DNA of 55,999 nt, counting the filler, from Sphacelaria rigidula (Eukaryota), in NCBI GenBank assembly GCA_964200075.2. It is 6 parts of 6 records of this genome, joined end to end, with 100 filler letters (N's around TTAATTAATTAA, not from the genome) between each part and the next. Parts side by side here need not be neighbours in the genome. Positions count along the whole stretch, not along the records: positions 1 to 9,251 come from CAXNAA020008921.1; 5 more parts are not named here. One strand, 5' to 3'. A program made the position numbers and the translations under genes. This document shows, piece after piece, positions 1 to 46,750 of this stretch. The notes beneath the pieces are model-generated. The model was not told the origin of the DNA, searched no databases, and was given only the letters and a program-made list of their open reading frames with translations. Within the stretch, counting starts at the first letter, position 1. The number at the start of each line of letters is the position of its first letter.

Positions 1-339
1 ATGGACACAATCCCGGGGAGCGGTTGGTTCTCATTTCAAAATACGTTCTCATTTTTCTGGCAACCCTGTTATTTCTTGATTGTATCCCGATGGTAATGAG
101 ACCTCAGCTTCTGTCCTGCCTGATTTAGCTAGATGCCAAGACTTCATTGCTTCTTCGTGCTCTTCGTATGCCATGCTTCATCCTACATTGCTTGTCATTG
201 TATTTAGAGTTCGTCCTGTACAGCTCGTGCTTCTTTTCCTAGGTGATATGGCTGCTATTCCTACTCTTCAACATCCCTCCTCTCGATTATTTTTTATTCT
301 TCCCCCTCTATCGACCGCGTAATTGCTGGTATATACTGC

Positions 340-1700
340 ACCACTTCTTTCTTGTGGTGACCCCAGTGACGGTCACTCGTTTGCAGTTTGTCGGGGTCTA
401 ACGATCCTCCGTCACCGGTTGTCAGAAGCACATGACAAATGGTTCTTATCCATTGGCGAACACAACCCCCGTACAACCCCTGCTACTTCTCACGGCGACT
501 GACTTTGAGTACAAGTCCATGCCGTTGGACTGTGCATACATGTAGGTTGTACGAAACAGTGATGAGTAGTTGCAGAATTCGTGAGGGTATACCGGGGAAG
601 GAGGACGCCCTGGTACTCGCCTGGACACATGGCCGGCGCCCCTCGGAGGTCGAAACTAGAAACTCCGAAGCTCTTCACGGCATAGGACTGAGGGTCCAAC
701 CCCCGACAAATGTACTTTGTTTTGTCGACCCGATACATCCCTTTTCCGGCAGTGAAAACGTAACAAGCCAAGAGTTCTTGTTTTCCGCTAAAGTCGACGC
801 TGTGCGGGCGTGCTGATCCAGTCCCCAATACCAAAAGGAGGACGTGCTCCGGGGGAAAATGGGTTGATCTCACGAGACGAAGGACTCGTTCCGAGATATG
901 GAGGATTTGTCCGTGTAAGAGAGACGAAACTACACGCACGCACGTCCACATGACCACTCGGACCAACCCGACCTAGTAAGTTATCGGTACGCTAAACGGG
1001 ATTCCATTTTTTGTGCGCTCGTCGCGCTCGACTGGCATCTTCGGGGATAATTTACTGCTGTGGTCCAACGTGGGCATAGCCGCAGCCGTTGGACGCTTTG
1101 CCACCACCTTTGTCGATGTTCAGCCATGTGTTGTTTCGATTGCGCATGCTGTCATTGTGCCCGAAACCAATCATGGCAACACCCCCATTTCGCCAGGAAA
1201 AGCGCGCCGGGAGGGAGGGGGGTATACTCATGATGTTGTATACCGTGGTCATATGATCAACGACATTACATCCCGACAGAGCCGGGACGGAGCAAGCCGG
1301 ATTTTCGCCGGACCAGGCTCAGGACGGGGGTAGCGGGGGGGAATCCCAGTGCTAAAGTAGCGAAGTACGACCTTGCCCATACGAAAAGTGGAAATATATG
1401 GTGTGTGTGTAGTTGGTGTTTTCAGCTTTTGGACGCAAGGCGACCATCTGGCACAATACATATCTCAGCCAATCACCGCCGTCAACACGCACATTATAAT
1501 TAAGAAGCCCATCTTTTTTTGCTAACAAAACATCCAATGACGAGCTCTGCAATTCGATCTCCCCGACCCATTACTCGTGAGTTTCGGCGAGGTGATCGAT
1601 GCGGGAGCAGTTGCTTGTCGCCTCATTCGCCAGGGAGCAATGGAGGGTCGATTTGCGGCATCCCGCGCCCAAACTGTTGGGGGCGGACGAGTTGCACATT
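340..1700 (-). pseudogene. Possible highly degenerate KDZ/CxC-type transposase relic
   Basis: Minus-strand fragments occur in the expected order: GEIELQS...DGLLNYN (~1570-1495), CPR[frameshift]GPQQ*IIPEDA (~1080-1035), DRHWGHHKK (~375-345). They recall IELQ..G.FNYN / CPxCGP..VIxDG / D.FH..GH motifs of CxC-associated KDZ-like proteins. Many stops and frameshifts. Confidence 0.25.
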
Positions 1701-2971
1701 GGTTGTTTGCTCGTCATGAACATCGCGTTTGTGATTAAACTAACTGAAGTATTTCCGACCAGTTGATGAACCCCCACAGTGTGGGATCGGGATCTGACAG
1801 AAAAAAGCTGTGTGGTGAGGACTCTCGGTTTCAATTTGTACCAACAGCTGCATTATATACTTGATGTCAAAGTCAGGCTCCAGCACAACTCGATGTGAAC
1901 TTGTCGAGTCATTTGAGCTCCGTTGTTCCAACATCAAATGAGTTCAAGCAGATGTTTGCTACAGAACGCAGTTGCAGTGTGATGTTCTTCAACTTCATGG
2001 CGCCCACAAGCTTGAGATTCCCCCAGGGTCGAGGCGTTGGCGGGCGCCGGCATCGGAGACCCCCACTTGTAGGTATCCTGGCCCATTCTGTGTGAAGCCG
2101 TAAATATTATGCGTGCGTCATGCACTTACGCAGTACCTGACCGCTTCATGTTAAATATTGGGGCAATCATCTACTCGTGACTCACTCTGTAGATGTGCAG
2201 TCTTGCCTGGGCACAACTGCCGAATCATGCATGTCGCAAGGGAAAGGTGCTGGTACAAGCAGCGCAATGGATGTTTTGTTTTCGTTCCACCCTCACCCTC
2301 CACCATTTCTTGTGACGAGTCTGTGGTTCCAAGGGGGTCAATTCATCTCTGCCTTGCCTGGTACATGTGTGACATTTTGATACCGCGGCTGGGGCTGGCA
2401 CTGCCGGACGTTGTCAACTCCGGTCAAATAGTGTGCGCTACTCACGTCCTCGCACTTGCAAAGCCGGAAATCTGATACGTACAAAAACGCGAATCCACCC
2501 GCATTCTCGAACCCTCATCCTTTCACCTAGCCGATTGAGAGGGACCAGTTGCATCACTGGGACAAGGCAGTGAAGGGATGGGTACACGTGGACCTTCCTG
2601 AGCTGCAAATTGCCGAATGCATTGAGGTCACCAGAAACAGAGTGCCACTTGAGCTTGACCCAAAAGACAAAATGTCACCAGGCGAAAATACCACCAAGCC
2701 ACGGAAAACATTACAGGAGATATCCGCAAGCACACGATAATCCACCATAACCACGTTACCTCCCCCCAGCTACGGTTCAAACACAGCGGCACCACACGAC
2801 CCGGAAACAGCCAAGTTAAGATCTCTTGCGGAGGTTTGTGCGGAATCATGAGGTCATCAAAACACAGATACGGTGAAACAGCACCACGCCAAGTTATCAG
2901 CCCGGAAAAGGGCGTGCAGGGGCCTTCTTATCGAGCTACCGCTCGCGCGGGCGGGATGAGGCCGCGGACAC

Positions 2972-5708
2972 CTAACGAGAGGAAGCAGATACGTCCAACT
3001 CTAGCTTTACGCCACCCCCCTCCTCCTTAGACGTTTCGTCATTCCCCGCTGCTACGTCAAATACCGACTCCATCCGCACCGTCCGGCGTGGCCATTTCGT
3101 GTTTTTTCCGCTGGCGATGCTCTTATGGCCGCTCCCATGTGTAGTGGTGCCGCTGGAGCCGCCATCGCTCATGCTGTTGCAACTGCTGGATTGTGCAGTC
3201 ACCAGTTCGCGACTCGTTCTTTCCCCGTTGAAACCTCGCGGAGGCGCAATATTCTGATCTATTTCCGTTTTCATGCGTGTCTGCGCCCCATCCGATAAAA
3301 CTCCATCTGCGGTTGCCGCGCCAGGGGGTTGTCTTGAGGCGACAGGCAACGTGGTCGTAACATTCGCACCCCGTCTCCTAGAACACGTGACACGTGAGCA
3401 ATGACAAACGTTTGCGTTACAGCAACCATCGTTTGCGTTGGGACCGGCATCCGATGAATGGGTGGCTTTTCCATCACGTTCATCAATATTGATATCACTT
3501 TCTCCCACGACTGAGTTATCGTTCGGGCGGTTCTTTTCTTGGACGTGTGGTACATCAGACGCCATGGCCAGACAGTGTGCAGCATCACGGCACATGTACT
3601 GGTGCTGCCGCAGCCGTTTGGAACAACGCTGCGAGACACATTCATTGTCGTTCATGGATACCAGTCCTGCGCAGGCGGGCGTGGCGCAGAACTTCGCCTC
3701 TCTGCCACCGGCCGCACCGAACGACGGACGTTTAGAGCATTCTCTGTCGCAACGCTTGCTGACTACGCTAACCATGCTCGTCCGGGTAAGTGGGCCGCAG
3801 AACTCTGCTTTCCTGCCACTGGTTGCACCGAAAAATGGTCGTTTGGAGCAACCCTCCTTGTCGAAGCGGCTGCTTGATACATTCACTATGCCCGCTGGGG
3901 CGTGCACGGCGCAGGACTCTGTCTTCCTGCCACCGGCTGCACCGAAAGATGGTCGTTCGGAACATCCCTCCTTGCAGCATCGCTTGCGGTTTACGTTAAC
4001 CATATCCGCTGGGGCGTGCACGGCGCGAACCTCCGCCTTTCTGCGACCGACTGCACCGAAAGATGGATGTTTGGAGCATCCCCCATTGCCGCGGAGGCTG
4101 CTTCTTACATTAACCATGCCCGCTGGGGCGTGCAGGGCGCAGAACTCTGCCTTCCTGCCACCGACTGCACCGAAATATGGTCGTTTGAAGCATCCCTCCT
4201 TACCGCACCGCTTGCTTGATACATTGACCATCCCCGTTGGGGCGTGTGTGGCACAGAACTCTGCCTTTCCGCCACCGGCTGCACCGAAACATGCTTGTGT
4301 GGAACATCCCTCCTTGCCGCATGGCTTGCGGTTTACGTTAACCATGTCCGCTGAGGCGTGCACGGCGCAAAACTTTGCACTTCTGCGACCGACTGCACCG
4401 AAAGACGGATGTTTGGAGCATCCCCCTTTGCCGCATCGCTTGCGGATCACGCTGACCATACCCTCTGGGGCGTGCAGGGCGCAGAACTCTGCCTTTTTGC
4501 CTCCGGCTGCACCGAGAGATGGTCGTGTTGAGCAGCCCTCCGTGCCGCAGCGGCTGCTTGATACGATAACCATGCCCGCTGGGGCGTGTGTGGCGCAGTA
4601 CTCTGCCTTCCTCCTACCGGCTGCACCGAGAGATGGTCGTTTGGAGCAGCCCTCCATGCCGCAGCGGCTGCTTGACACATCAACCATGCCCGCTGGGGCG
4701 TGCAGGGCGCAGAACTCTGCCTTCCTGCTACCGGCTGTACCAACAGATGGTCGTGTTGAGCAGCCCTCCGTGCCGCAGCGGCTGCTTCGTACGTCAACCA
4801 TACCCGCTGGGGCGTGCAGGGCGCAGAATTCTGCCTTCCTGCTACCGGCTGCACCGACAGATGGTCGTGTTGAGCAGCCCTCCTTGCCACAGCGGCTGCT
4901 TGTTACGATAACCATGCCCGCTGGGGCGTGCAGGGCGCAGAACTCTGCCTTCCTGCCACCGGCTGCACCGAAAGATGGTCGTGTTGAGCATCTCTCCTTG
5001 CCACAGCGGCTGCTTGATACATCATGCCCGCTGGGGCGTGTGTGACGCAGAACTCTGCCTTCCTGCTACCAGCTGCACCGACAGATGGTCGTGTTGAGCA
5101 TCCCTCCTTGCCGCAGCGGCTGCTTGATACAATAACCATGCCCGCTGGGGCGTGTGTGGCGCAGAATTCTGCCTTCCTCCTACCGGCTGCACCGAAAGAT
5201 GGTCGTTTGGAGCAGCCCTCCTTGCCGCAGCGGCTGCTTGTTACATTAACCATACCCACTAGGGCGTGTGTGGCGCAGAACTCTGCCTTCCTGCCACGGG
5301 CTGCACCGAAAGATGGTCGTTTGGAGCATCCCTTCTTGCCGCAGCGGTTGCTTGATACAATAACCATGCCCGCTTGAGCGTGTGTGGCGCAGAATTCTGC
5401 CTTCCTGCCACGAGCTGCACCGAAAGATGGTCGTTTGGAGCAGCCCTCCTTTAGACACCACTTGCTAATTACGTCAACCATTCCCGCTGGGGCATGTGTA
5501 GCGCAGAATTCTGCCTTCCTGCCACCGGCTGCACCGAGAGATAGATGTTCGGAGCATCCCTCCTTGCCGCATCGCTTGCTTTTTCCCTTGATCATGCCCG
5601 CCGGGACGTGTGTGGCGCAGAACTCTGCCTTTCTGCCACCGGCTGCACCGAAAAATGGCCGTTTGGAGCAACCTCCCTCACCACACAGCTCACCAATCCA
5701 GCACAAGC
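2972..5708 (-). CDS. EsV-1-7 cysteine-rich repeat protein (~18 x 38-aa C-x4-C...C-x2-H units), frameshifted at ~5020; possible pseudogene or assembly error
   Basis: ORFs 4903..5808 and 2972..4915 carry consecutive units like CGKEGCSKRPSFGAAGGRKAEFCATHAPAGMVNVSSKR, the EsV-1-7 motif. A 4-nt deletion at ~5021 (gatacatcatgcc versus gatacaataaccatgcc in sister units) splits the frame. A low-complexity C-terminal tail ends GGGVKLELDVSASSR*. The 5' boundary is a guess from a candidate acceptor (ttggtgcag) at 5710-5709. Confidence 0.88.
3635..5690. repeat. Coding tandem array, 114-bp unit, ~18 copies
   Basis: Recurrent 'catgcccgctggggcgtg...gcagaactctgccttcctgccaccggctgcaccgaaagatggtcgt' at 114-nt spacing. 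Confidence 0.95.
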
Positions 5709-5892
5709 CTGCACCAATCAAGCAGCAAAGGCAACCGTATATCGTGCCCATGAGAGGTGTAGGTGAACCGTCATATTGTATATCGATCAAAAACAGGCAC
5801 GTGGACAAGAGTGGACTGACTCACCATCTCACCGTGGAATGCGCAGGCAACAACGATAGCAAATGGAGCACGACCGCCACAGGGGGGGGGGG

Positions 5893-6142
5893 GGGCGACG
5901 TCTTCATGATGAGGGGCGTAGCATCGAGACTGTTGCTGCCATGGCCGGGCGATTGAACAAAGGAAGTGGTATTNNNNNNNNNNCACCAACCCCGCGGAGG
6001 CGGCAGAGGCAACGCCCGCAGACAGACGCGGGGGCCCGAGCGCGGGGGGGGGGGGGGGGGGGGGCGACGTCTTCATGATGAGGGTCGTAGCATCGAGACT
6101 GTTGCTGCCATGGCCGGGCGATTGAACAAATGAAGTGGTATT
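5893..6142. repeat. ~80-bp duplication either side of a short N gap (probable scaffolding overlap)
   Basis: gcgacgtcttcatgatgagg...gaagtggtatt occurs at ~5893-5973 and ~6061-6142, each preceded by poly-G, with 11 N between. Confidence 0.8.
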
Positions 6143-9100
6143 GAACACTGAAGCTGCACAACAGTTCCTAGTCACTACGGCGCTGGAATGGTTTTTCCAC
6201 TTGTAATATTTGATCTCCACACGCCGCGCTACCACTCTGACTTTAGCGCCTTGCGTCGGGGGCCATACAGACTGGACAGCAAGTTCGTGTAAGTAATATC
6301 CGTGAGCAATTAGCGATTATTGCGAACCCTTCATACCAGGTAGGTGATATAGTGGTGAACAGCATTCGCCGACCCTCAACATATTTGTCGTATTGTCATG
6401 CGTATTGATAAACACCACTATATCCTGCGTTGGGTAGGCGAAGGGTGCTCCACACTGGGTGCGGCGACGGTCGGCACTTAGCGGGGATTGTGCGTAAGAC
6501 TGAACCCACCATACGTCACTCAATGTACTGGGGTTCAAGGAAGTGGGGTATCCCAATCCTAGTACCTGTTGAGGGTCTGGTGTCTTCCAAATCTGTTGCT
6601 GGCTTACCGGCAATGAGAGTACCTCCAACACGGGCTCGTAGCCTGAAGCCAGGTTCAACACCCTCAACAGAAGTACGCCATTTTCGTGCTTCGCGATCTG
6701 CAACGTGAACCATCCATGCATCCCACCATCGTTCTTTCCATGTTCATGCCCGACTGCTGTACTGGCTACTTTCTTCCAGGCAGGTCGGTTTCACGCGTAC
6801 GTTTCGAGGACGGCTCGCATAACACCAAGTGTTGGGAACACATCAGGGTGTCCCAGACATAATCACTTCTCCCCAGTCCATGTATGGGTCACCATGCGTC
6901 GCTACTTCACTAATTCTCCCGGGTAGACCTGCGTCGCCGAAAGCTTAGCCACCGATTCCTCCATGTTTTGTACTGGCCTCCCTCCCGTCGAGGTCTCCAG
7001 ATATCTACATACCGCTTGGTGCTCTTCGTTGTTGGTCATGCGGTTGGTCATTAGCAAGGTGTTTGTTTCTTAAATGCCGTAAGTCTGGACGTTTTCGTTA
7101 GGCATTATCCGCCGTTCCCTTTATTCGACGCCTGTGCACCCAACGTCAAGAGCTGTAGGAAAATGGCCAACCGGATTATCATCGGCCAACGAAAGAGGTT
7201 TCCCGGTATGACACCACGAGACAGAACAGTGTGAAATTAAGATGTCGGGGTCACTCTATTCCATCTGTACTCGTTATATGTCTAACTAAGATTACGTGCG
7301 AGCGCTCCCGTGCAAGCGGGACACTTAACGAACCCCTTCAGCTTGACGTCACCCTGCGACATTTTGCATTTTCGAAAGCTTGATAAGATAGTGCAATGTT
7401 TTCCCGTCACCGTTCACGTTCGACGAGTGCGAGATTCGACCTCCGACCCAAGCAGTCAGTGCATGAAAGTATGCGCGTAATAGGCAATACAAGGAGCCCT
7501 GATCGTGGATCTGACACTTTGATTCTAAAAAACGGAAATTTCAACTATACATGCATACACGCAATGAACACAGGTGACAACAGACTGCAGAACGCAAGAA
7601 GAGCGTATCCGTTCTCTCCGGGCTAGAGTTTTCTTTGGACCATGTTGCTGTAAATTTGTGGCTGTATATTGCGCAAAACACATAAAAACGTAAGGTTGAT
7701 CAGGTTGTGCAATGATTTTCCATCACCGTTCATCTTAGACGAGGACAAGATTCCACGTTGACCCAAGTATATGTGCAACACACTTACGTCGAAGCGGTAA
7801 CGCGATTAGTTTTTTATTGCAACGTAGGCGTCCAATCAGTCAGAGCGTAAGCAAGAACAGCAACGCATTGCAGCTTACCGCCCGGCGTTTTTTTCGCAGG
7901 CCTTTCGTTGCTTCGATTTCAATTAACAACGGTCATGGACGCTGTATTTGTTGTGACCTATTTGCAACCATCTGTCCGGCGCGGTTAACTCCCACGACAT
8001 TCTGCCGTGTCTCGCTTTCAGTCTCCATCATTTGCCGCAGTAAGCAAGAGTTCATGTTCAGCAGTGATGTCTGTGTTTTTCTTGGAGCTATTCGTAGATG
8101 TGCTGAGATGTTGCCAGAGTCAATATATGTCCTCGATTGAGCTTTCTCCGTATATTCATTGTCGGTGTACATCGGAGGTTGATACGCGAATGTTGAGGGA
8201 TATTTCGACTTGCAGGTTGTACAAAAATACATGGCTTCTTCGTAACGAAGATACATACTGGGGAAGCGACGCAGGTTCCTTCGCGAAGGTTTCCTCGTGT
8301 GCCTTCAGCCCCTCTTCCACATGTGCGTATTATATAGTAACACATTCGGCGTAGGGATATTGCGTGGTGCAATTATAATATCATGTGTCGTGCTTGGTTT
8401 CGACGTATGTATAGTGTATACGTGAGAGTGTCGTGGGTCCGAGTGTGTTCAGGGAAACGACTTATTGCTCTTGCTGAATGCAGCACCTCTTGCTATGCTT
8501 CTACGTGATGATATAAATAATATACATTCGAATATTCCCTTCCGCCGACAATTTGAAGTGAGGCGTGTTATTGAAAATTGAGCATCGCATATGTATTTGC
8601 ACCCCAGATTAACTTTTTTGTTTAATTAGACAGGAGAACTTGAGTAGCCCCCGGGCGTATGCCTGCACGGGAAGTTTTCGCCCGACTTGGCGAGCTGATG
8701 ACCTATATACGTATACGCACCAATTTGTGCAGCTCACTGCTATATACACCGGGCTCACTTGCGTTCGAGTGGAACCCCCCAATCATCTGGCTGCATGCCT
8801 GGGATCCTGTAACATACCCGAGCATTAGGGCGCAGATTATTCGCAGGGTATCCCTGTCTCAAGGGTGAAAGTCTTTTTACAGGGGCATCATAAGCCCCCT
8901 GCGCAGGGTCTACGCAAAGGGATGTCCCTGAAACAGGACTTTCATCCTTGGGCAGGGATAACCCTGCTCAGGTTCTTCACAGTGGATGGACTGTGACTTT
9001 GCACACAGTCCGGTAACCTGGGTCATCCGAGTACCCTGCACTCGGCCTACGCAGTTCACCCACAGAGGAGACCTTTGCCCACGTGTGTTACTTTTCCGTC

Positions 9101-9149
9101 TTGACTTTGTGCATTTCTCGGCAAGCAGTTCTTTTGACGATGAACGTCT

Positions 9150-9251
9150 TCCCCTCACACCATGCCCAACAGTGGAGGGCGACTATGTCGTGGGTACAGA
9201 AAATTCGACTGAATGGAGGTCGACGAGGGAAAGGGACTGCTGAACCCCTCT
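9150..9251 (+). mobile_element. tRNA-derived SINE, internal fragment cut by contig end
   Basis: ctcacaccatgcccaacagtggagggcgactatgtcgtgggtacagaaaattcgact...gggactgctgaacccctct matches the body of the 40607 copy. Confidence 0.8.
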
Positions 9252-9351
9252 NNNNNNNNNNNNNNNNNNNNNNNNNNNNNNNNNNNNNNNNNNNNTTAAT
9301 TAATTAANNNNNNNNNNNNNNNNNNNNNNNNNNNNNNNNNNNNNNNNNNNN
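9252..9351. other. Artificial contig linker N44-TTAATTAATTAA-N44
   Basis: Six-frame-stop spacer inside a 100-nt N block. Confidence 0.98.
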
Positions 9352-10961
9352 CTCCTGATTTGTTTTTTTCCTCTCAAACGAGACACCTGTTTATCAGCCT
9401 TTGGGGCGTCAGTTGCTCAGCCACACGTCGTCGAAACAATACGCACGAGCCGTAAGTGGTTTGTTCTTGTGTCTCATGAATATAATCGGATGGTGTTCAA
9501 TGGTGTGAGCAGTGTTGAGTGTTGTTTTCGATTTATTTATCAATAGTTCTTTGATGATTCAAGATGATTCAAGCAAGCAAGTAAAAATGATGACGCCAAA
9601 TAATTTACGCAGATCCTCAGGCTACACCCCCTCAGCCACACTAGTGCGGCCGTTGCAGTGATTGCTGCGGTCACAGATGGGTGAAGGGTTTGTGGTTCGT
9701 CGCAACTGCCCCCCTCCTTCGCCTCGATCTTTTGCCCCAACTCATTAAACCCGTTTCCCCCCACCGCGTGTTTGACGGTTTCAGTTTTTAGTCTCGCCGC
9801 GTTTGTGCGAAAAGTCCTTAGCTCTGCTTGTTCTGATGTTAGGGTGCCGAACTCTAGTAATCTGACTCACTTGGGTTTGCTAGGATTCATGATCAGGTTG
9901 CATCAAGATATGGATTAAGCGGTTTATGTTCGCTTACACAGTGTACTTCAAGCCCAACACCGAACCAAGACTTGCCGAGACCGCGACTGCTGTTTTGTTC
10001 TTCGCTGTTTGTGCTTGGGTGTGCTCTGCAAGTGAAGTGACTTTTCTCCCCCGTTTAACCCATTCTAAAACCAAGTAACTTGTGGTTGAGCTTAGTTGCA
10101 TTGAGTATATAGGATTTAGTGTAGAAACGGAACCTGCCAGCCCGGACACGGTCCCAACAGTGCTACCCCCCCTCACCCCAATCGGCCCCAAATGGAAAAA
10201 AGTGAGTGTGGGTCCAGGAATATCTTTTTGCACCCGCCCTTGCATCTACAGGCAATTTTTTCCCGTGGATTGATTTTTCGAACCCCAGTCCGATGGGCAA
10301 TATTTGTCGGCTAGCTGTGAGCAAACCAGATCAATTCTCCGATTTTGTGGACGTTGACGTTTGGTTCACCACATTTCTGCCTAAATCGGGACACTCCCGC
10401 ATCCCCCCCGGTTTTTCGCATTGTAAGCAGAGAGAAGTGGTAGTCCTTGGGTGTCTGCACTGCACGTTGCCCGCTTCTCCTTTATATTATCCTGCATGAA
10501 ACACGCACACACGCTATCAACACACCCTGCTTGCAAGCAGTGCAGGCAGTACAGACTGTCTGTACTGAACACGAGTGACCATGTTCCGTTTCACAACTTT
10601 CACTTCTATGGTACAACCGAGGTGGAGTTTGGGGTGTTGCCAAATAATGTCTAGGTAGCTATTATAGCTACCTAGCCGTATATTCCGCTCGGGTGCGTTA
10701 GTCGTTAGTGCACGTGCATGTAATTATTCTTGTGTTCGGGGAGAAACCCCTGAGCCCTCCGAACACATGGTTGCGGACTTATTGTACTGAACGGTCTTGT
10801 TTCGAAAATGGATATAGTAGAAACCCCCGAGCCCTCCAACCCCATGGTTGCGGACTTACTGAACTGTACAGTCTTGTTTCGGAAACAAATGGTACAGTCT
10901 GTGGTGTTGCTAGATGATGTCGCCTAGCTAGCTACCTACCCACCTCGCCATATATCCCGCA

Positions 10962-11030
10962 GACGGTCGACGAGGGAAAGGCAGTGCTGATCCTCTGTCA
11001 CGATGAAAATAAAAAAAGGCAACCACCATA
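10962..11030 (+). mobile_element. tRNA-derived SINE fragment
   Basis: cggtcgacgagggaaaggcagtgctgatcctctgtcacgatgaaaataaaaaaaggcaa matches the SINE body. Confidence 0.65.
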
Positions 11031-11252
11031 TAAAGGTACAGCTCCGATTGAGGGACATTGTAGTTCACCTGCTAACAGTGATATTTTTTTCACTAGACTC
11101 AAGTTTTTATGCTGTGTATCATTCCACGATATGTGCAGCCCTGTATGCAGGTCTATGTCTGTAATACAGCAGCTGCATGCAGGACTTGTTCAAAACACTG
11201 TTCTGTGGCTACCAAGGTACATAGACAGCTCTCAAAATCTCCATATGCAGTG

Positions 11253-11550
11253 ACGGTCGCCCCAGTCGCTCAGTTAATAACCTCGACACCTTCTGATGGT
11301 TGAGTCGTGGATTGAAATCGCTGAGCAATCTGGGATTTTTTCTCACACCATACTCAACAGTGGAGAGCGACTATGTCGTGGGTACACAAAAGGAAGATGA
11401 AGTACTAAAGGCAACTCGAAAATAAAAAGCTCATGTGTTGTTGACCTTCCTCCTGTGTGACCACCTGCCACGGCTGGTGCGCATACATATACCGAAAGTT
11501 ATAGACTGGCGCCCAGGATAAATGGCACGCTACAAACACAACAATACAAC
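11253..11550 (+). mobile_element. tRNA-derived SINE, internally deleted copy
   Basis: Head acggtcgccccagtcgctcagttaataacctcg, body tgggatttttctcacaccat...ctcctgtgtgacc, CA-rich tail. Confidence 0.8.
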
Positions 11551-11699
11551 CTAGCCGACACCCGAGGAACTTTCCTCGTGGTCATAAGTTTCCAATGGAC
11601 GAGACTCGTGAGGCCTCAACGTAGAACAATAAAGGCTGTCCGGTTCGCATAAGTGTACGTTTTAACCCTTGATCCGCGGCGACGGTACTGCATCTCAAT

Positions 11700-11770
11700 C
11701 ACGCATACTCTTTTCAAGTGAATATTGATGCCGATTCAGCAGGTAACCTGCCCTCGCGATCGAAGGATGA
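11700..11770 (+). repeat. Dispersed repeat family 'ttttcaagtgaa..tgatgccgattcagcagg..accctcgcgg' (other copies ~15505-15605, 47040-47125, 47420-47500, 47885-47950, 55858-55925)
   Basis: The same motif is present in both orientations in two separate contigs. Confidence 0.7.
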
Positions 11771-13354
11771 ACACCGATATCCTCTCTCAACTTTTTCTAA
11801 CTGATGTTCTTGAACATGCTTTTGTGGACTGTTGAGTTCGCACAACGGGGACCCACATGACCTAGGTATTATGACGGTATTAGACGCTTCATGTCAAAAC
11901 TCAAGAGGAAGGGATTTCAGATGTTCCGACTTGTGTGTGTGATGAAGAAATGCCCCGCCATGAACACGCTGCTTTGGTTCGGGTTCTTGTTGAGAGTTTT
12001 TCACAATCTCGAGGAGGCTTTTGTGGTTCGGGATCGACACCCCGCGAAAAAGAGCTAGTGTGGGCGACTTTCGTCGGCCAGAAGACGCGCCACAGGTATC
12101 AGATGACACCCAAACCTGAACTGTAATGTACCCCTGACCCTCCTTCGTGCACTGCAAAACAAAGCGCAGGCTAATATGCCTTTCAGCCAGAGAAAACTCG
12201 GCAAAAATAGTGAAAAAGGCGAAATGACACATTTACATATATCCTTACACTGCGTATTGATCTATCACCTGCCGATGTCCAATATAATGAGCACCGAAGT
12301 TGGCCGTGATATGGTGAGTAATATTGTGATCAAGGAGAGTTTCGATATAGGCTGATCCCTGATGCGCTTCCTGAACTGATTGATTCATTTGGTTGGTTGG
12401 TTGATAGTGCTCGGTTGTCTGGCATGAAACTTGTCCACTTACGAGTCCACCGACGGTCACGGAAATATTGGCGTACTGTGCCCATAGCAAATACACGAAA
12501 AACATGGAAATGGAACCCCAAATTCTGTCCTAGTGAATTCGTTTCGGAAGAAACAATGAGAGCTCTATCTCCTGTAAGGAATAGCAGGTTGGTATTGGAA
12601 AAGACAAGCCTACGTCTGTGACCACGGGTCCGAGAGATCGGGCTAACGTACGGAAATAATAATGATGAAAACTAGCTGTTCCGCAGCGCGCGTTTTGTTT
12701 TTTCCAGATTTCGTGCTTCGTACAAGTTCAGTACTCTCGGGGCCTTAAGTTGATACCAATTGCTAGTAAGTGTTGTTGATTTCGTGCAGGTTTCCACCTC
12801 CGCCAAGCTGTTCGGTGTCGTCATTTGCAGCGTCCGACCTTAGAATCTTGCTGACGGGGCAACTTTGTGTCTGCCTCCGTCGGTGAGTTGCAGTATATGT
12901 CAGGCGGGCGGAGTTGCGGGGTTGATTCGATTGCAGATTGGTATTGGAAAATTCGTGTTGCTGAAAGGCGTTCGTTACGATGGCTTTTGATGCGATCGCG
13001 GAATGGCACAGCGTTGGCCCGGTGTAATCTTCACGATGTATGTCCATGTTGACATTAAACGACTGCTCGTGCTTGCATGAAAAATTTCTCAAGGGTGTGT
13101 GTTGGGTAGGAGGTGAATGCCCGGGTATTTACTCTCCCGGAGTTTGTGTTGCGATGATCCGATCTCCAAACTCTACCCAAACAAACGGGTAAAATTAGTT
13201 ACGATCGCATTACCCTGCCCATTACCCGGGTATTGTTGAGTACGATCTCAGTACTCTACCCGACTTTTGGGTACTCAAGAGTCCGATTTTGCGAAGTAAC
13301 CGAATGAAGAAAATACCCTAACAACGCAGTCTTGGAAGTTTTCACATCCTGGAA

Positions 13355-14345
13355 AATACAATATGCAATATGTATAATATATATATATATATATATATTG
13401 CTCGCTCAATATGTCGATGCGTCGGGTGGTCAATGTGTAGTCGGCGAGCAATATGGTGGCACGAGAGACAGGTCAAAATATATTGTGCCATCAATATGTC
13501 AAGGCTCGCGACATGCCATATATATTGACCAAGCAATGTATCACGACAAGCGTCACCTCAATATATATATATATATATATATATATCGAGTAATATATTG
13601 GCTGCCACACGAGGTCAATATATATATCGACGATTCAATATACTCAACACCCGAACCGCCAACATATATTGCTGCCCCAGTATGTCGTGCGTCAATGCGT
13701 CCAATATATATTGGTCGGGCAATACACGAGGGAACCGACGGACACAAGACATGATGACAAAGCAGTATATATTGATGATCCAACATGTAGATTGGAAAAT
13801 GTATTGGAGTTTTTATGGCGGGTAGTTTTATGTTCGCGGGCGCCATTGAAAGATATACCACCACATGCCGAAAACGCTCAATATATTCATCCGCGAGCGT
13901 GTTCAATGTATATTGGCTGCACAGTAGCTATGCGATGAGCGTGCGCATTATATAATGGAAAAATAATAATTTTGCATGGTTTGTGTTCAATACTTCGTAT
14001 ATATGATGGTAACTATATGTAACGCATCGCTTCGACTCAATATATTTTGACACTTAAATACATACACGACCGGCATGCGCAATATGTATTGCACGTTTTT
14101 TTCCCGAAACAAACGCATGTCCGATGCATACCGTCATACATTACTTCACGATCGTGAGACGAGAAATAAATGTTGTTGCTTCAATATCTCGGAGGTTATC
14201 TCAACACATTTATATATATATATATATATATATCGAAATGACAATATTTGCAGTCCAAGGGTACCGATATGCGTTACGCCGGCAATATATCACAAAACTC
14301 CAATATGATCGACTTGCATATAGTGAACGCATATGGTATTGTCCA
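13355..14345. repeat. Degenerate AT-rich repeat region (caatatatattg-like motifs, (TA)n runs)
   Basis: Many caatatat/atatattg motifs at short irregular spacing, with (TA)n tracts near 13375, 13560 and 14212. Confidence 0.6.
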
Positions 14346-14963
14346 TGATGTGAAATTTTCATACCGTGGAGAATGACTACATATGGTCAATGGTCGCAAA
14401 AGACACAAAATGTACTGCTTGAAGAATAGGCATATTGCAACTATTGCCGGCCGATATTAGCTGCAACAGGCTTATACTTGACGCAGTACATTTTGTGTCT
14501 ATTGCAACTACTGACTGTACGTTGTCATTGTCCGGAGTGTGCAAGTTTTCAACTACTTCCTGGCGTCTTCATGCAGTGGCTGGGCGACGACCCTGCTCGA
14601 GAAACGAACGTGCGGCGTGGGCCTTTGTTCTGGCAAGTCGCCCGTAGCCAAAGTGACAGGATTTCTCTCTTCTCTCCAGTCACCCACACACGACTCTTTC
14701 ACCCTCCGCCATTTTCATGTATGTTATCCAATATCTTGGATTCAATATATTAAGCGTGGCGGTGGAAGCCGCACAAAATCTTGTATACATACGTATATAT
14801 GTATATATCAAATATCAGTGAGCGCATGACGATTTTTTTTTTAAATCTCAATCTCGATGCAAAAAGAACAAACGTTGATTTGTATTTTTTGGCCAAACGT
14901 ACTGAAACGCTGTTGTGTGCTTTGTTTTTGTCCCGCTTCATCGCCGTATATCCATCTCACCAG

Positions 14964-18601: not shown

Positions 18602-18701
18602 NNNNNNNNNNNNNNNNNNNNNNNNNNNNNNNNNNNNNNNNNNNNTTAATTAATTAANNNNNNNNNNNNNNNNNNNNNNNNNNNNNNNNNNNNNNNNNNN
18701 N
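18602..18701. other. Artificial contig linker
   Basis: Same N/TTAATTAATTAA/N spacer. Confidence 0.98.
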
Positions 18702-27951: not shown

Positions 27952-28051
27952 NNNNNNNNNNNNNNNNNNNNNNNNNNNNNNNNNNNNNNNNNNNNTTAAT
28001 TAATTAANNNNNNNNNNNNNNNNNNNNNNNNNNNNNNNNNNNNNNNNNNNN
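27952..28051. other. Artificial contig linker
   Basis: Same spacer. Confidence 0.98.

Positions 28052-28114
<63 letters not shown>
28052..28114. repeat. (AGT)n microsatellite at contig start
   Basis: Direct inspection. Confidence 0.95.
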
Positions 28115-28115
<1 letters not shown>

Positions 28116-31743: not shown

Positions 31744-31744
31744 G

Positions 31745-31808
<64 letters not shown>
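31744..31808. repeat. (TTG)n microsatellite
   Basis: Direct inspection; explains the poly-L and poly-T ORFs. Confidence 0.95.

Positions 31809-31809
<1 letters not shown>

Positions 31810-37214: not shown

Positions 37215-37277
<63 letters not shown>
37215..37277. repeat. (TG)n microsatellite
   Basis: Direct inspection. Confidence 0.95.
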
Positions 37278-37301: not shown

Positions 37302-37401
37302 NNNNNNNNNNNNNNNNNNNNNNNNNNNNNNNNNNNNNNNNNNNNTTAATTAATTAANNNNNNNNNNNNNNNNNNNNNNNNNNNNNNNNNNNNNNNNNNN
37401 N
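37302..37401. other. Artificial contig linker
   Basis: Same spacer. Confidence 0.98.
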
Positions 37402-39670: not shown

Positions 39671-39924
39671 GGGGCTTCGCGAGAGGTGATGCTGCCGCAA
39701 GCGACGAAAATAATTCCGTGGTGGATGATCGAGGCGCAGTTCAACAATTCGATAGTGAAAGCGTGCATAAAATAATGTTCCGATAAGGATAATCTGTGAC
39801 TTGGCTACAATATGGGAAATTCGGACAGCGGGCACTTGATTGCAGTGTGCGAGCGGGGTGATATTACGTCATTAATAAATAGGATGATAATAATAATATA
39901 ACAATAAAAGTAATAAATATAGTA

Positions 39925-39948
39925 ATCGTAGTAGTAGTAGTAGTAGTA

Positions 39949-40008
<60 letters not shown>

Positions 40009-40062
40009 GCAACAATAATGATAATAACAACAGCAACAATAATGATAATAACAACAACAATA
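39925..40062. repeat. Compound (AGT)n/(AAT)n/(AAC)n microsatellite
   Basis: Direct inspection. Confidence 0.95.
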
Positions 40063-46650: not shown

Positions 46651-46750
46651 NNNNNNNNNNNNNNNNNNNNNNNNNNNNNNNNNNNNNNNNNNNNTTAATT
46701 AATTAANNNNNNNNNNNNNNNNNNNNNNNNNNNNNNNNNNNNNNNNNNNN
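46651..46750. other. Artificial contig linker
   Basis: Same spacer. Confidence 0.98.

Follow-up and report, generated by a model that had tools for sequence, protein, structure and literature searches.

A long EsV-1-7 array in Sphacelaria rigidula, probably a decaying paralog from a possible DNA-binding zinc-finger family

Introduction

There is a long tandem array of short units, each with three cysteines and a histidine, in the genome assembly GCA_964200075.2 of Sphacelaria rigidula. The question raised by this locus is whether it encodes a working protein that reads nucleic acid unit by unit. A sequence-only reading had proposed such a protein, in which the two residues that follow the second Cys would, in every unit, specify one DNA or RNA element in the manner of TALE or PPR repeats. 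The units belong to the EsV-1-7 family, whose genes form the largest brown-algal orthogroup and include the developmental regulator IMM, and whose molecular activity is described as unknown (bioRxiv 10.64898/2026.04.27.720984; bioRxiv 10.1101/2024.02.19.579948; PMC7457493).

The whole stretch of DNA that was analysed, hereafter the window, is 55,999 nucleotides long. Six pieces, each about 9.25 kb long, make it up, with artificial N44-TTAATTAATTAA-N44 spacers between them, and therefore the true context of the array is positions 1-9251 only.

An 18-unit array of the EsV-1-7 family

3665..5712, minus strand: EsV-1-7 tandem array, 18 units of 38 amino acids (114 nt) with the spacing C-x4-C-x16-C-x2-H (TRF, unit table, Pfam PF19114 in 17 stretches)
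5749..5751, minus strand: candidate ATG start, lying 13 codons ahead of unit 1 of the unit table and 22 ahead of its first Cys (frame-0 translation; an upstream exon is possible)
3438..5045, plus strand: antisense open frame of 535 aa (ORF scan; no Pfam family)
5913..6081, no strand: assembly duplication around a 10-N gap (5974-5983); in contigs of two runs, 6082 follows immediately on 5912

The initial count of about 18 tandem 38-aa units is borne out by TRF (period 114, 17.6 copies at 3674-5670, 81% matches, score 2195), by the unit table, in which 18 units of 38 aa run from 5712 down to 3665 on the minus strand, and by Pfam. The family PF19114 (EsV_1_7_cys; cut-off 25 bits) matches the minus-strand ORF at 2972-4915 in 11 stretches (E 7.2e-131, 426.1 bits) and the minus-strand ORF at 5023-5808 in 6 stretches (E 3.8e-80, 263.8 bits). 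The array thus has the gathering score, the ligand pattern and the tandem period of about 38 aa that mark members of the EsV-1-7 family. The residues that had been read after the second Cys (KR-PF, EH-LS, KR-PS three times, TR-PS four times and so on) are exact for all 18 units, and the basic charge noted at the same time amounts to a net +68 over the 18 units. The array is also contiguous, with no intron-sized break, as had been described. The full set of four ligands is kept in 15 of the 18 units, the exceptions being units 15, 17 and 18, and the description of a strictly periodic, zinc-finger-like array of the 3Cys+His type is consistent with all observations.

In the rest of the window, Pfam finds no family in 60 of the 83 stop-to-stop open frames of at least 110 aa. 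A Pfam search of the window's open frames found no viral or transposon marker adjoining the array, and Rfam has no match within the window. The 535-aa antisense frame is a by-product of the repeat, because no stop codon occurs in the unit when it is read in that frame. A peptide is duplicated in translation around the gap at 5913..6081.

State of this gene copy

5019..5028, minus strand: place where unit 7 has lost 4 bp, so that it measures 110 nt and not 114 (G-M-V junctions of all units compared; three-frame translation; Logan contig)
3665..4120, minus strand: units 15-18, with ligands lost in units 15, 17 and 18 (unit table, ligand count)
3551..3664, minus strand: relic 19th unit or cap, C-x4-C and then irregular, kept in Sphacelaria paralogs (unit table, alignment)
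2972..3550, minus strand: C-terminal tail with no known domain, common only to Sphacelaria rigidula paralogs (region search, alignment)

Four bases are missing next to 5022/5023 in unit 7. As a result, the array is split over two reading frames (ORFs 4903-5808 and 2972-4915), and the upstream frame, followed past the deletion, meets a stop at 4903-4905. A 209-nt Logan contig of run X3 matches 4953-5161 without differences or gaps and reproduces the deletion; this contig and the probable source of the assembly stem from a single study. There is no insertion at the deletion site in the contigs compared from any of four runs.

The last units have departed from the consensus, with ligand states R/C/R/H in unit 15 and F/C/C/L in unit 17, and with C-x3-C and no His in unit 18. 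The tail has no Pfam match, and a search with this region returns 3 proteins, all from S. rigidula, at 69-76% identity. Its stop at 2972-2974 lies, in the alignment, 12 codons before the end of the paralogs P0001 and P0003. A variant in run X4 has 19 coding differences, 11 of them nonsynonymous and 8 synonymous, a split that shows no clear departure from neutrality or constraint, and one of them changes the His ligand of unit 12 to Tyr. The paralogs P0001-P0003 have lost ligands independently, in other units than the window copy. The most likely state of this copy is that of a paralog in decay, within a birth-and-death family, rather than a gene for a working 18-unit protein; the most that could still be made is the 647-aa downstream frame, with units 8-18 and the tail. 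The term 're-programmable protein' used at the outset is unfitting, since the locus is frame-shifted.

Some evidence tempers the pseudogene reading. The downstream frame is open for 697 codons, pN/pS between the units of the array is 0.56, and the ligand codons of units 2-14 differ only synonymously.

One alternative is that the gene is intact and functional, in which case the 4-bp deletion would be an artefact of the assembly or strain, or the 647-aa downstream frame would be the real product and would start at the Met of a G-M-V joint. Such a gene would agree with the long open frame and the pN/pS value just given, with the retention of all ligands in units 8-14, and with the annotated paralogs P0001, P0003 and P0005, which likewise start at an M-V-x-V joint. 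However, the exact reproduction of the deletion in the X3 contig, the absence of an insertion there from every run, the three C-terminal units without their ligands, the early stop and the polymorphic His ligand all speak against it. In addition, no identical protein is found among the homologs listed, and thus public annotation apparently holds no such model in the range of 355-1133 aa. We regard an intact gene as unlikely.

Unit amplification and a Sphacelaria subfamily

4577..5370, minus strand: young core, units 4-11, with 81-93% mutual DNA identity and with the T17 units 6, 7, 8, 9 and 11 in one clade (identity matrix, unit tree)

The array belongs to a lineage-specific, recently amplified subfamily that combines the repeated units with a private tail of about 230 aa. 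There are 19 proteins named as S. rigidula among the 120 homologs listed, and these include the top 6. In run X1 the summed contig depth is 1,300-14,550 at 4496-5293 and 70-76 in the flanks, a figure that is not a copy number.

The closest paralogs or orthologs are the unnamed S. rigidula proteins P0001, P0002 and P0003, which are 64-71% identical to the window copy over the array. They share its tail, its degenerate last units and its relic cap. Unlike the window copy, they have only 3-8 units and are annotated as open genes, in addition to the differences in lost ligands and in the terminal codons of P0001 and P0003 described above. The 18 units of the window exceed the number in any of the 253 relatives inspected, for which the maximum is 16 loosely defined units and about 7 is typical.

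Unit scaffold and structure models

4121..4918, minus strand: units 8-14, with all ligands intact, the part that was modelled (AlphaFold2)

The common features of the unit were derived from 665 units of 133 representatives, collected from relatives in protein databases. Positions 2, 14, 19, 21, 22, 25, 31 and 36 are conserved in this set along with the four ligands, whose invariance results from the construction of the set. On average a unit bears a net charge of +2.7, and 84% of the units are positive. Successive units keep a strict spacing, with a period of exactly 38 in 191 of 270 successive canonical unit pairs (375 units, 105 proteins).

The AlphaFold2 model of units 8-14 (pLDDT 88.5, pTM 0.56) has no helices and has beta-bridges at unit positions 3-4, 21-22 and 31. 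Foldseek finds nothing in the PDB for the array model at E<=0.001. A search of PDB sequences gives 0 matches with the array alone and chance matches at E>1 with profiles A1 and A3, and the ESM Atlas offers no usable named match for the array. With VIA-align the best Z for the unit is 3.0, and its neighbours are RING, A20 and B-box fingers (Z 2.0-3.0, which is noise level), mostly protein-binding modules.

The 38-aa unit most likely forms a small module that binds zinc, with C10, C15, C32 and H35 as predicted ligands. It would be built on a conserved scaffold of hydrophobic residues and glycine, and the conserved G-M-V-x-V joint would fix the period. Conserved basic residues occupy positions 8, 9, 17, 27, 28 and 36, and variable, probably exposed residues occur in the short stretches 6-9, 11-13, 16-20, 33-34 and 37-38. 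Our guess from the model is that positions 7, 9, 16, 18 and 20 might lie on one hairpin face, but only if the beta-bridges 3-4 and 21-22 share one unit.

Viral fusions of the array with a nuclease-like domain

There are 135 proteins among the 253 relatives that carry the motif [RK]PD...E-x-DE-x-x-H, and in all 135 it follows the last unit. In IMG/VR, 581 of 606 pattern matches encode relatives, a lower bound for such loci in that database, with many of them in giant-virus MAGs, and in 74 of the 80 viral loci fetched the array (2-13 units) and the motif are in one frame. These giant-virus proteins (for example P0068, loci L001-L080 and the BFVD entries named 'Endonuclease') have the same EsV-1-7 units as the window and the same period. 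P0068, whose model has a pLDDT of 92.6, matches PF19114 in 5 stretches (E 3.3e-73), and viral array models match the window array model at E values down to 8e-28. At E<=0.001 there are 29 matches in BFVD, 4 named 'Endonuclease' and 1 named 'DNA primase', together with EsV-1-7 itself (Q8QNQ2), the model of which matches that of the window array at E 1.4e-25 with 42% identity. The viral proteins differ in that their array scaffold is more uniform, and in that their C-terminal part is a nuclease-like domain of about 170 aa, preceded by CxxC...CxxC. The window protein has no such domain.

The C-terminal domain aligns with I-Bth0305I at Z 8.7 (rmsd 3.0 over 95 residues) and with Vsr at Z 8.2, both near the noise ceiling of about 8 stated for the structure-alignment tool, and with NGO0050 at Z 7.6. 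Five of its residues, D263, E276, D278, E279 and H282, do not vary among 63 sequences. The comparison by hhalign with a DUF559-positive ORF gives 64% probability (E 6.6e-5), and the DUF559 HMM on record G001 matches another gene and not the array-linked one. The domain is not recognised by Pfam or NCBIfam, and the ESM Atlas provides only leads below 0.9 for the nuclease part of P0068 (DUF559, Vsr-like, PvuRts1I-like). Outside Macaisne et al. 2017 and the preprint supplements, our literature search found no report that links EsV-1-7 to a Vsr/I-Bth0305I-like nuclease.

None of the six frames of the window contains the nuclease motif, and neither does any of 31 named proteins of brown algae or EsV-1. 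A scan of IMG/VR with the window array alone, a method that detects close relatives only, found no close viral relative.

Possible binding of DNA

The N-terminal side of nucleases and transposases is the usual place of DNA-binding modules in such enzymes. A Tc1/mariner transposase of Ectocarpus is reported to carry an N-terminal EsV-1-7 domain (PMC12477816). We infer that the arrays bind DNA because giant-virus relatives carry the array before a Vsr/I-Bth0305I-like domain and because of this transposase fusion. Since the window and the 31 named brown-algal or EsV-1 proteins have no nuclease domain, the argument is one of domain association across a large evolutionary distance. Nucleic-acid binding as first suggested thus gains indirect support with respect to DNA from the viral and transposase fusions, but the accompanying code of one di-residue per unit is not supported (see below).

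The array would most likely bind DNA along its length, with several variable positions per unit on a fixed scaffold, in a way more similar to a C2H2 array than to a TALE. We lean slightly towards the reading that this locus is a genuine 18-unit EsV-1-7 array, now decaying, whose most likely ancestor was a zinc-finger array that bound DNA and had more than one variable patch in each unit. The array-before-nuclease architecture of the viral proteins makes the molecular activity of EsV-1-7 testable.

Alternatively, the array might be a scaffold for proteins or other partners that are not nucleic acids, as are many RING, B-box, LIM and A20 modules, and the viral fusions would then bind such partners. 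The RING, A20 and B-box fingers are indeed the only structural neighbours of the unit, the model lacks the sort of helix with which DNA is usually read, and the function of IMM is described as unknown (PMC7457493). However, the Z scores of these neighbours are at noise level, the units bear a strong, position-specific positive charge, and the array is N-terminal to the nuclease in every motif-bearing protein as well as to the transposase (PMC12477816). A scaffold of this kind seems to us quite unlikely.

The preferred reading of a DNA-binding array can be extended well beyond this locus, to a proposal that we consider improbable. EsV-1-7 arrays would be the DNA-targeting modules of a large undescribed family of giant-virus nucleases of the Vsr/EDxHD type (2-13 units). 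Hundreds of arrays free of the nuclease would have been acquired by brown algae, to serve as regulators or to block the target sites of viruses, and a partial code would reside at exposed positions beside the zinc ligands (7/9, 17/18/20 and 33/34/37). If this were true, the long, fast-duplicating Sphacelaria arrays would be raw material of new specificities, and the partial code would be readable from the cleavage sites of the viral enzymes.

Variable positions within the unit

The first description had localized the variation of the array in the di-residue after the second Cys (positions 17 and 18). Over the 18 units, however, positions 6, 4, 34 and 12 have entropies of 2.48, 2.31, 1.82 and 1.67 bits, compared with 1.61 at position 17 and 1.23 at position 18. 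Variation is spread over the stretches 6-9, 11-13, 16-20, 23-24, 33-34 and 37-38. The per-position entropy check that had been proposed was run on the relatives. Family-wide, 16 of the 38 positions reach at least 3.17 bits (665 units, 133 representatives), and within-protein entropy in the same set declines smoothly (1.97, 1.94, 1.94, 1.74, 1.74, 1.65 and so on). Position 17 is conserved, being K or T in 457 of the 665 units, and positions 19 and 21 are part of the scaffold. This check did place positions 18 and 20 among the most variable, but it revealed no two-position hot spot.

The residues at these positions also follow the history of the units. In a unit tree built without codons 17, 18, 20 and 21, the T17 units form one clade, in which the K17 unit 14 is nested with zero branch support. 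The KH unit 12 groups with the KH unit 15 in this tree, and unit 13 with unit 16. Because the K/T and R/H states track the genealogy of the units, they were inherited by unit duplication and do not reflect independent re-programming. Between units, pN/pS at codons 17, 18, 20 and 21 is 2.2-2.9, although these four codons were picked after the variation had been seen.

The viral arrays linked to nucleases speak in part for the first reading. Positions 18 (1.53 bits) and 20 (1.62 bits) are the top two in within-array variability there, and position 18 is second in within-protein variability in wider sets of relatives. Nine words at positions 17-18 (KQ, TR, IR, TI, TQ, KR, KI, II and KH) account for 277 of 358 units. 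Canonical units were obtained from 71 of 74 viral proteins, and in these the words are arranged in 59 different non-empty orders. However, the mutual information between positions 17 and 18 in viral arrays is only 0.38 bit. In 11 independent pairs of matching viral arrays, pN is highest at position 34, followed by 17, 7, 1, 37 and 20, and position 34 alone exceeds the overall pS.

A working, re-programmable protein in which one di-residue per unit reads one DNA or RNA element, like a TALE or PPR protein, would agree with the strict 38-aa period, the basic charge, the raised pN/pS at the four chosen codons, the variability of positions 18 and 20 and the many orders of the viral words, but it is very unlikely at a frame-shifted locus where variation occupies several stretches, position 17 is conserved and residue states follow duplications. 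TALE/PPR-like codes are characterized by a unit that hardly varies except at one or two hypervariable specificity positions, and by variation at these positions that is independent of unit genealogy; neither is seen here.

A clustering of variable positions round the zinc site was also considered, as 7 of the 10 most variable viral positions are within 3 residues of a ligand. The same is true for 18 of the 34 non-ligand positions; the enrichment is thus not meaningful, and the idea was dropped.

Comparison with known systems

Taken alone, the locus is an ordinary, damaged member of the EsV-1-7 family (PF19114). It shares the motif, the C-x4-C-x16-C-x2-H spacing and the tandem layout with Ectocarpus IMMEDIATE UPRIGHT and with the EsV-1 protein EsV-1-7. 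It has no other Pfam domain, which is also reported for all Ectocarpus members (bioRxiv 10.64898/2026.04.27.720984). It is unlike other members in being frame-shifted and in having a tail private to Sphacelaria. Orthologues of IMM are recognised by an IMM-specific N-terminal domain in bioRxiv 10.1101/2024.02.19.579948.

In comparison with other modular proteins, the EsV-1-7 unit differs from C2H2 arrays in the order and spacing of its ligands and in the lack of a recognition helix in the model, and from TALEs in the lack of a single hypervariable di-residue on a near-invariant unit. C2H2 arrays and TALE repeats are functional analogues and not relatives, and have in common with the EsV-1-7 array their fixed-period tandem modules on a conserved scaffold and joint, more than one variable position in each unit, a basic surface and rapid gain and loss of units and genes.

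The SBP domain (PF03110) is matched weakly, with scores of 27.0 and 23.5 bits (cut-off 27) over positions 1-36 of the 75 in its profile, and no stretch passes alone. We take the first zinc site of SBP to space its ligands as the EsV-1-7 unit does; the array profile found no SBP chain among PDB sequences. Zf_WRKY19 (PF24906; cut-off 27) is not listed for the window units even at E<=10, and the relative P0009 scores 36.2 bits on it.

An additional member of the EsV-1-7 family

In the piece 1-9251, a single tandem array is found by Tandem Repeats Finder at positions 3674-5670, with a period of 114, 17.6 copies, 81% matches and a score of 2195. It is encoded on the minus strand. When cut at the conserved G-M-V junctions, the array resolves into 18 units of 38 amino acids running from 5712 to 3665, followed by a relic of a 19th unit. 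There are 11 Pfam matches to PF19114 (EsV-1-7 cysteine-rich motif) in the ORF at 2972-4915 (minus strand, E 7.2e-131) and six in the ORF at 5023-5808 (minus strand, E 3.8e-80), and the net charge of the array is +68. This combination makes a chance origin impossible, and the locus is an additional member of the known EsV-1-7 family. The sequence-only reading had described about 18 such units, in agreement with the count, the period and the Pfam matches, and the residues it lists behind the second Cys agree exactly with all 18 rows of our unit table.

Five artificial spacers, spaced at a step of about 9350 bases, join six unrelated pieces of about 9.25 kb. The window is thus not one locus, and the true context of the array is 1-9251. 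No viral or transposon markers were found in these 9 kb around the array: of the 83 stop-to-stop frames of at least 110 amino acids in the window, 60 gave no Pfam family. Outside the array, the whole window yielded no Rfam families and no Pfam domains.

Features of the window other than the array
9252-9351, 18602-18701, 27952-28051, 37302-37401 and 46651-46750: artificial spacers, N44-TTAATTAATTAA-N44
5974-5983: 10-N gap within the piece 1-9251
3438-5045, plus strand: 535-aa antisense open frame without a family match, open because the repeat unit has no stop in that frame
28052-28115: microsatellite AGT x21, perfect or near-perfect, in another piece of the window
31744-31809: microsatellite GTT x22, likewise
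37215-37277: microsatellite TG x31, likewise
39887-40062: microsatellite ATA x59, likewise

The region 5913-6081 around the 10-N gap is an assembly duplication with the same peptide encoded on either side; contigs from two sequencing runs (X1 and X4) connect 5912 straight to 6082, skipping it.

Putative array-nuclease fusions in giant viruses

The lead that matters in this analysis comes from viral relatives. At E<=0.001, a search of predicted viral structures with the array model returned 29 proteins. Among them are EsV-1-7 (1.4e-25, 42% identity) and EsV-1-115, as well as proteins of marseille-, faunus-, klosneu-, pitho-, cedrat- and Tetraselmis viruses; four of the 29 are named "Endonuclease" and one "DNA primase". 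The motif [RK]PD...E-x-DE-x-x-H is present in 135 of 253 relatives, always C-terminal to the last unit. An alignment of 63 motif-bearing proteins defines a conserved domain of about 170 amino acids with invariant D263, E276, D278, E279 and H282, ahead of which lies a CxxC...CxxC element. Scanning IMG/VR with two domain motifs gave at least 606 pattern matches, at least 581 of which encode relatives; many of these lie on contigs that carry a giant-virus MAG label. Array and motif share one frame in 74 of the 80 loci kept, with 2-13 units, and one 420-kb record (95% complete) carries two genes of this kind.

The C-terminal domain is not recognised by Pfam, NCBIfam or PDB sequence searches. For one giant-virus representative (P0068), modelled at pLDDT 92.6, Foldseek gave no match at E<=0.001, and its list of weak matches consists almost entirely of PD-(D/E)xK nucleases. 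When these candidates were aligned with VIA-align, the catalytic domain of I-Bth0305I ranked first (Z 8.7, rmsd 3.0, 95/97 residues), followed by Vsr (Z 8.2) and the DUF559-type protein NGO0050 (Z 7.6), values that barely exceed the level this program calls common. In a profile-profile comparison, the domain matched a DUF559-positive ORF from the same viral record across the acidic/His core at 64% probability (E 6.6e-5), and Atlas leads below 0.9 agree with the nuclease direction. The EDxHD homing endonucleases have I-Bth0305I as their prototype, an enzyme whose catalytic domain is Vsr-like and whose footprint spans about 60 bp (PMC3239194).

There is, then, a widespread giant-virus family, with at least 581 loci, that combines an array of 2-13 units, the CxxC...CxxC element and a Vsr/I-Bth0305I-like domain. 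Because of this likeness, we interpret the viral proteins as putative DNA endonucleases, in which the architecture suggests that the N-terminal EsV-1-7 array is the DNA-binding part. The nuclease domain is absent from the window and from all 31 named brown-algal or EsV-1 proteins. In the literature searched, no paper was found that ties EsV-1-7 arrays to a nuclease of the Vsr/EDxHD kind in giant viruses. A Tc1/mariner transposase of Ectocarpus carries an EsV-1-7 domain at its N-terminus (PMC12477816), a fusion that fits the picture of the array as a DNA-binding element.

Predicted structure and proposed function

Units 8-14 were modelled with AlphaFold2 from an alignment of 72 sequences (pLDDT 88.5, pTM 0.56). 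The model has no helices and has beta-bridges at unit positions 3-4, 21-22 and 31, a pattern that is repeated in the P0068 model. Foldseek found no solved structure resembling the array at E<=0.001, and the best VIA-align score of the array model is only Z 3.0, to RING, A20 and B-box fingers. The mean net charge per unit is +2.7, with fixed basic residues at positions 8, 9, 17, 27, 28 and 36.

The EsV-1-7 unit is very probably a zinc module, and we favour, with less assurance, DNA as what the array binds. In the account we consider most likely, the family would make strictly periodic, basic, zinc-dependent DNA-binding arrays, and the window copy would be a recently expanded member that is now decaying; brown algae would hold nuclease-free versions of the array. 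Such versions have been proposed as transcription factors (PMC12629598). The zinc-finger and transcription-factor idea for EsV-1-7 is already in print.

Against Pfam PF24906 ("WRKY19 zinc finger domain", cut-off 27), one of the relatives, P0009, scores 36.2 bits, which hints that EsV-1-7-like fingers may be related to a land-plant finger family. An Atlas cluster from Nucleocytoviricota has PF24906 in 63% of its members.

Variable positions

The sequence-only reading had proposed that a variable di-residue after the second Cys (positions 17 and 18) forms a TALE/PPR-like code of one unit per element. Among the 18 units of the window array, positions 6 (2.48 bits), 4 (2.31), 34 (1.82) and 12 (1.67) have the highest entropy, with 1.61 at position 17 and 1.23 at position 18. 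Two family-wide sets were compiled, one of 375 canonical units from 105 of 120 proteins and one of 665 units from 133 cluster representatives. The pattern by which units were picked fixes the ligands; beyond these, conservation is seen at positions 2, 14, 19, 21, 22, 25, 31 and 36. Entropy reaches at least 3.17 bits at 16 of the 38 positions, and in 457 of 665 units position 17 holds K or T. Within proteins, variability falls smoothly from 1.97 bits in the order 6, 18, 7, 16, 20, 34, 28, 33 and onward. The TALE-like contrast of two hot positions against a frozen remainder is absent from these family-wide sets.

In a unit tree built without codons 17, 18, 20 and 21, the T17 units 6, 7, 8, 9 and 11 form one clade, within which the K17 unit 14 sits with zero support; the KH units 12 and 15 pair, as do units 13 and 16. 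This grouping indicates that the di-residue pattern is largely inherited through unit duplication, one instance being the duplication of a block of three units (12-14 and 15-17).

Several observations, in the window array and in the viral arrays, favour the sequence-only reading. Between units of the window array, pN/pS is 0.56 overall, about 1.0-1.35 at 13 family-hypervariable positions and about 0.5 elsewhere; it is 2.2-2.9 at codons 17, 18, 20 and 21, four codons chosen post hoc in comparisons that are non-independent.

Nuclease-linked viral arrays have a tighter scaffold, and their within-array variation peaks at positions 20, 18, 7, 9 and 34. Comparing matching viral arrays in 11 independent pairs gives a pN/pS of 0.365, and the fastest positions are 34, 17, 7, 1, 37, 20, 3, 18 and 33. 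Nine 17-18 words cover 277 of the 358 viral units, and across 74 proteins they are arranged in 59 distinct non-empty orders. The two positions share only 0.38 bit of mutual information.

Thus, the localized patch survives in part: variable, probably exposed residues do follow the second Cys, but they make up one variable stretch among three to five rather than a single code-bearing di-residue. Given the missing TALE-like contrast and di-residues that follow unit genealogy, a simple one-unit-one-element code is improbable. The passages on EsV-1-7 that we read in the literature do not contain the code idea.

Probable expansion and decay of the window copy

Unnamed S. rigidula proteins are the best six of the 120 homologs listed and 19 of the 120 overall, with a top identity of 71%. 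Degenerate last units, a relic cap and the tail are common to the window copy and three S. rigidula paralogs (P0001-P0003), and a search with the last 223 tail residues alone retrieved only these three, which makes the window gene part of a lineage-specific subfamily and S. rigidula or a close relative the probable source of the window. Ligand loss in the paralogs affects other units than in the window copy, a distribution that points to relaxed constraint on distal units across the subfamily.

Units 4-11 share 81-93% DNA identity among themselves. Contig depth summed over 4496-5293, which is not a copy number, is 20-200x that of the flanks in four runs and shows that many near-identical units are located elsewhere in the genome. 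The 18 units exceed those of any of the 253 relatives inspected (maximum 16, loosely defined; typically about 7), and longer arrays may exist, since the first 120 relatives were restricted to 355-1133 amino acids.

The sequence-only reading was right that the array is real, but it overlooked a frameshift, ligand losses and an early stop. Unit 7 is 110 nucleotides long and, relative to all other junctions, lacks four bases directly after the Met codon of G-M-V, beside 5022/5023. The upstream frame has a possible ATG at 5749-5751 and encodes six units before running out of frame to a stop at 4903-4905; a different frame, which opens at 5065 and closes with the stop at 2972-2974, holds the remaining array and the tail. 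A 209-nt contig from run X3, which belongs to the same study as the assembly's likely source, spans 4953-5161 with no differences and no gaps, and no run compared has an insertion at the site. This rules out scaffolding as the origin of the deletion. All four ligands (C10, C15, C32 and H35) are complete in only 15 of the 18 units, and the stop is located 12 codons ahead of the ends of P0001 and P0003. We consider it probable that the window copy no longer yields a full-length protein. A strain-like variant in run X4 carries 19 coding differences, among them a G>A change at 4360 that converts the His ligand of unit 12 (4349-4462) to Tyr, and their split into 8 synonymous and 11 nonsynonymous changes is compatible with weak constraint or none.
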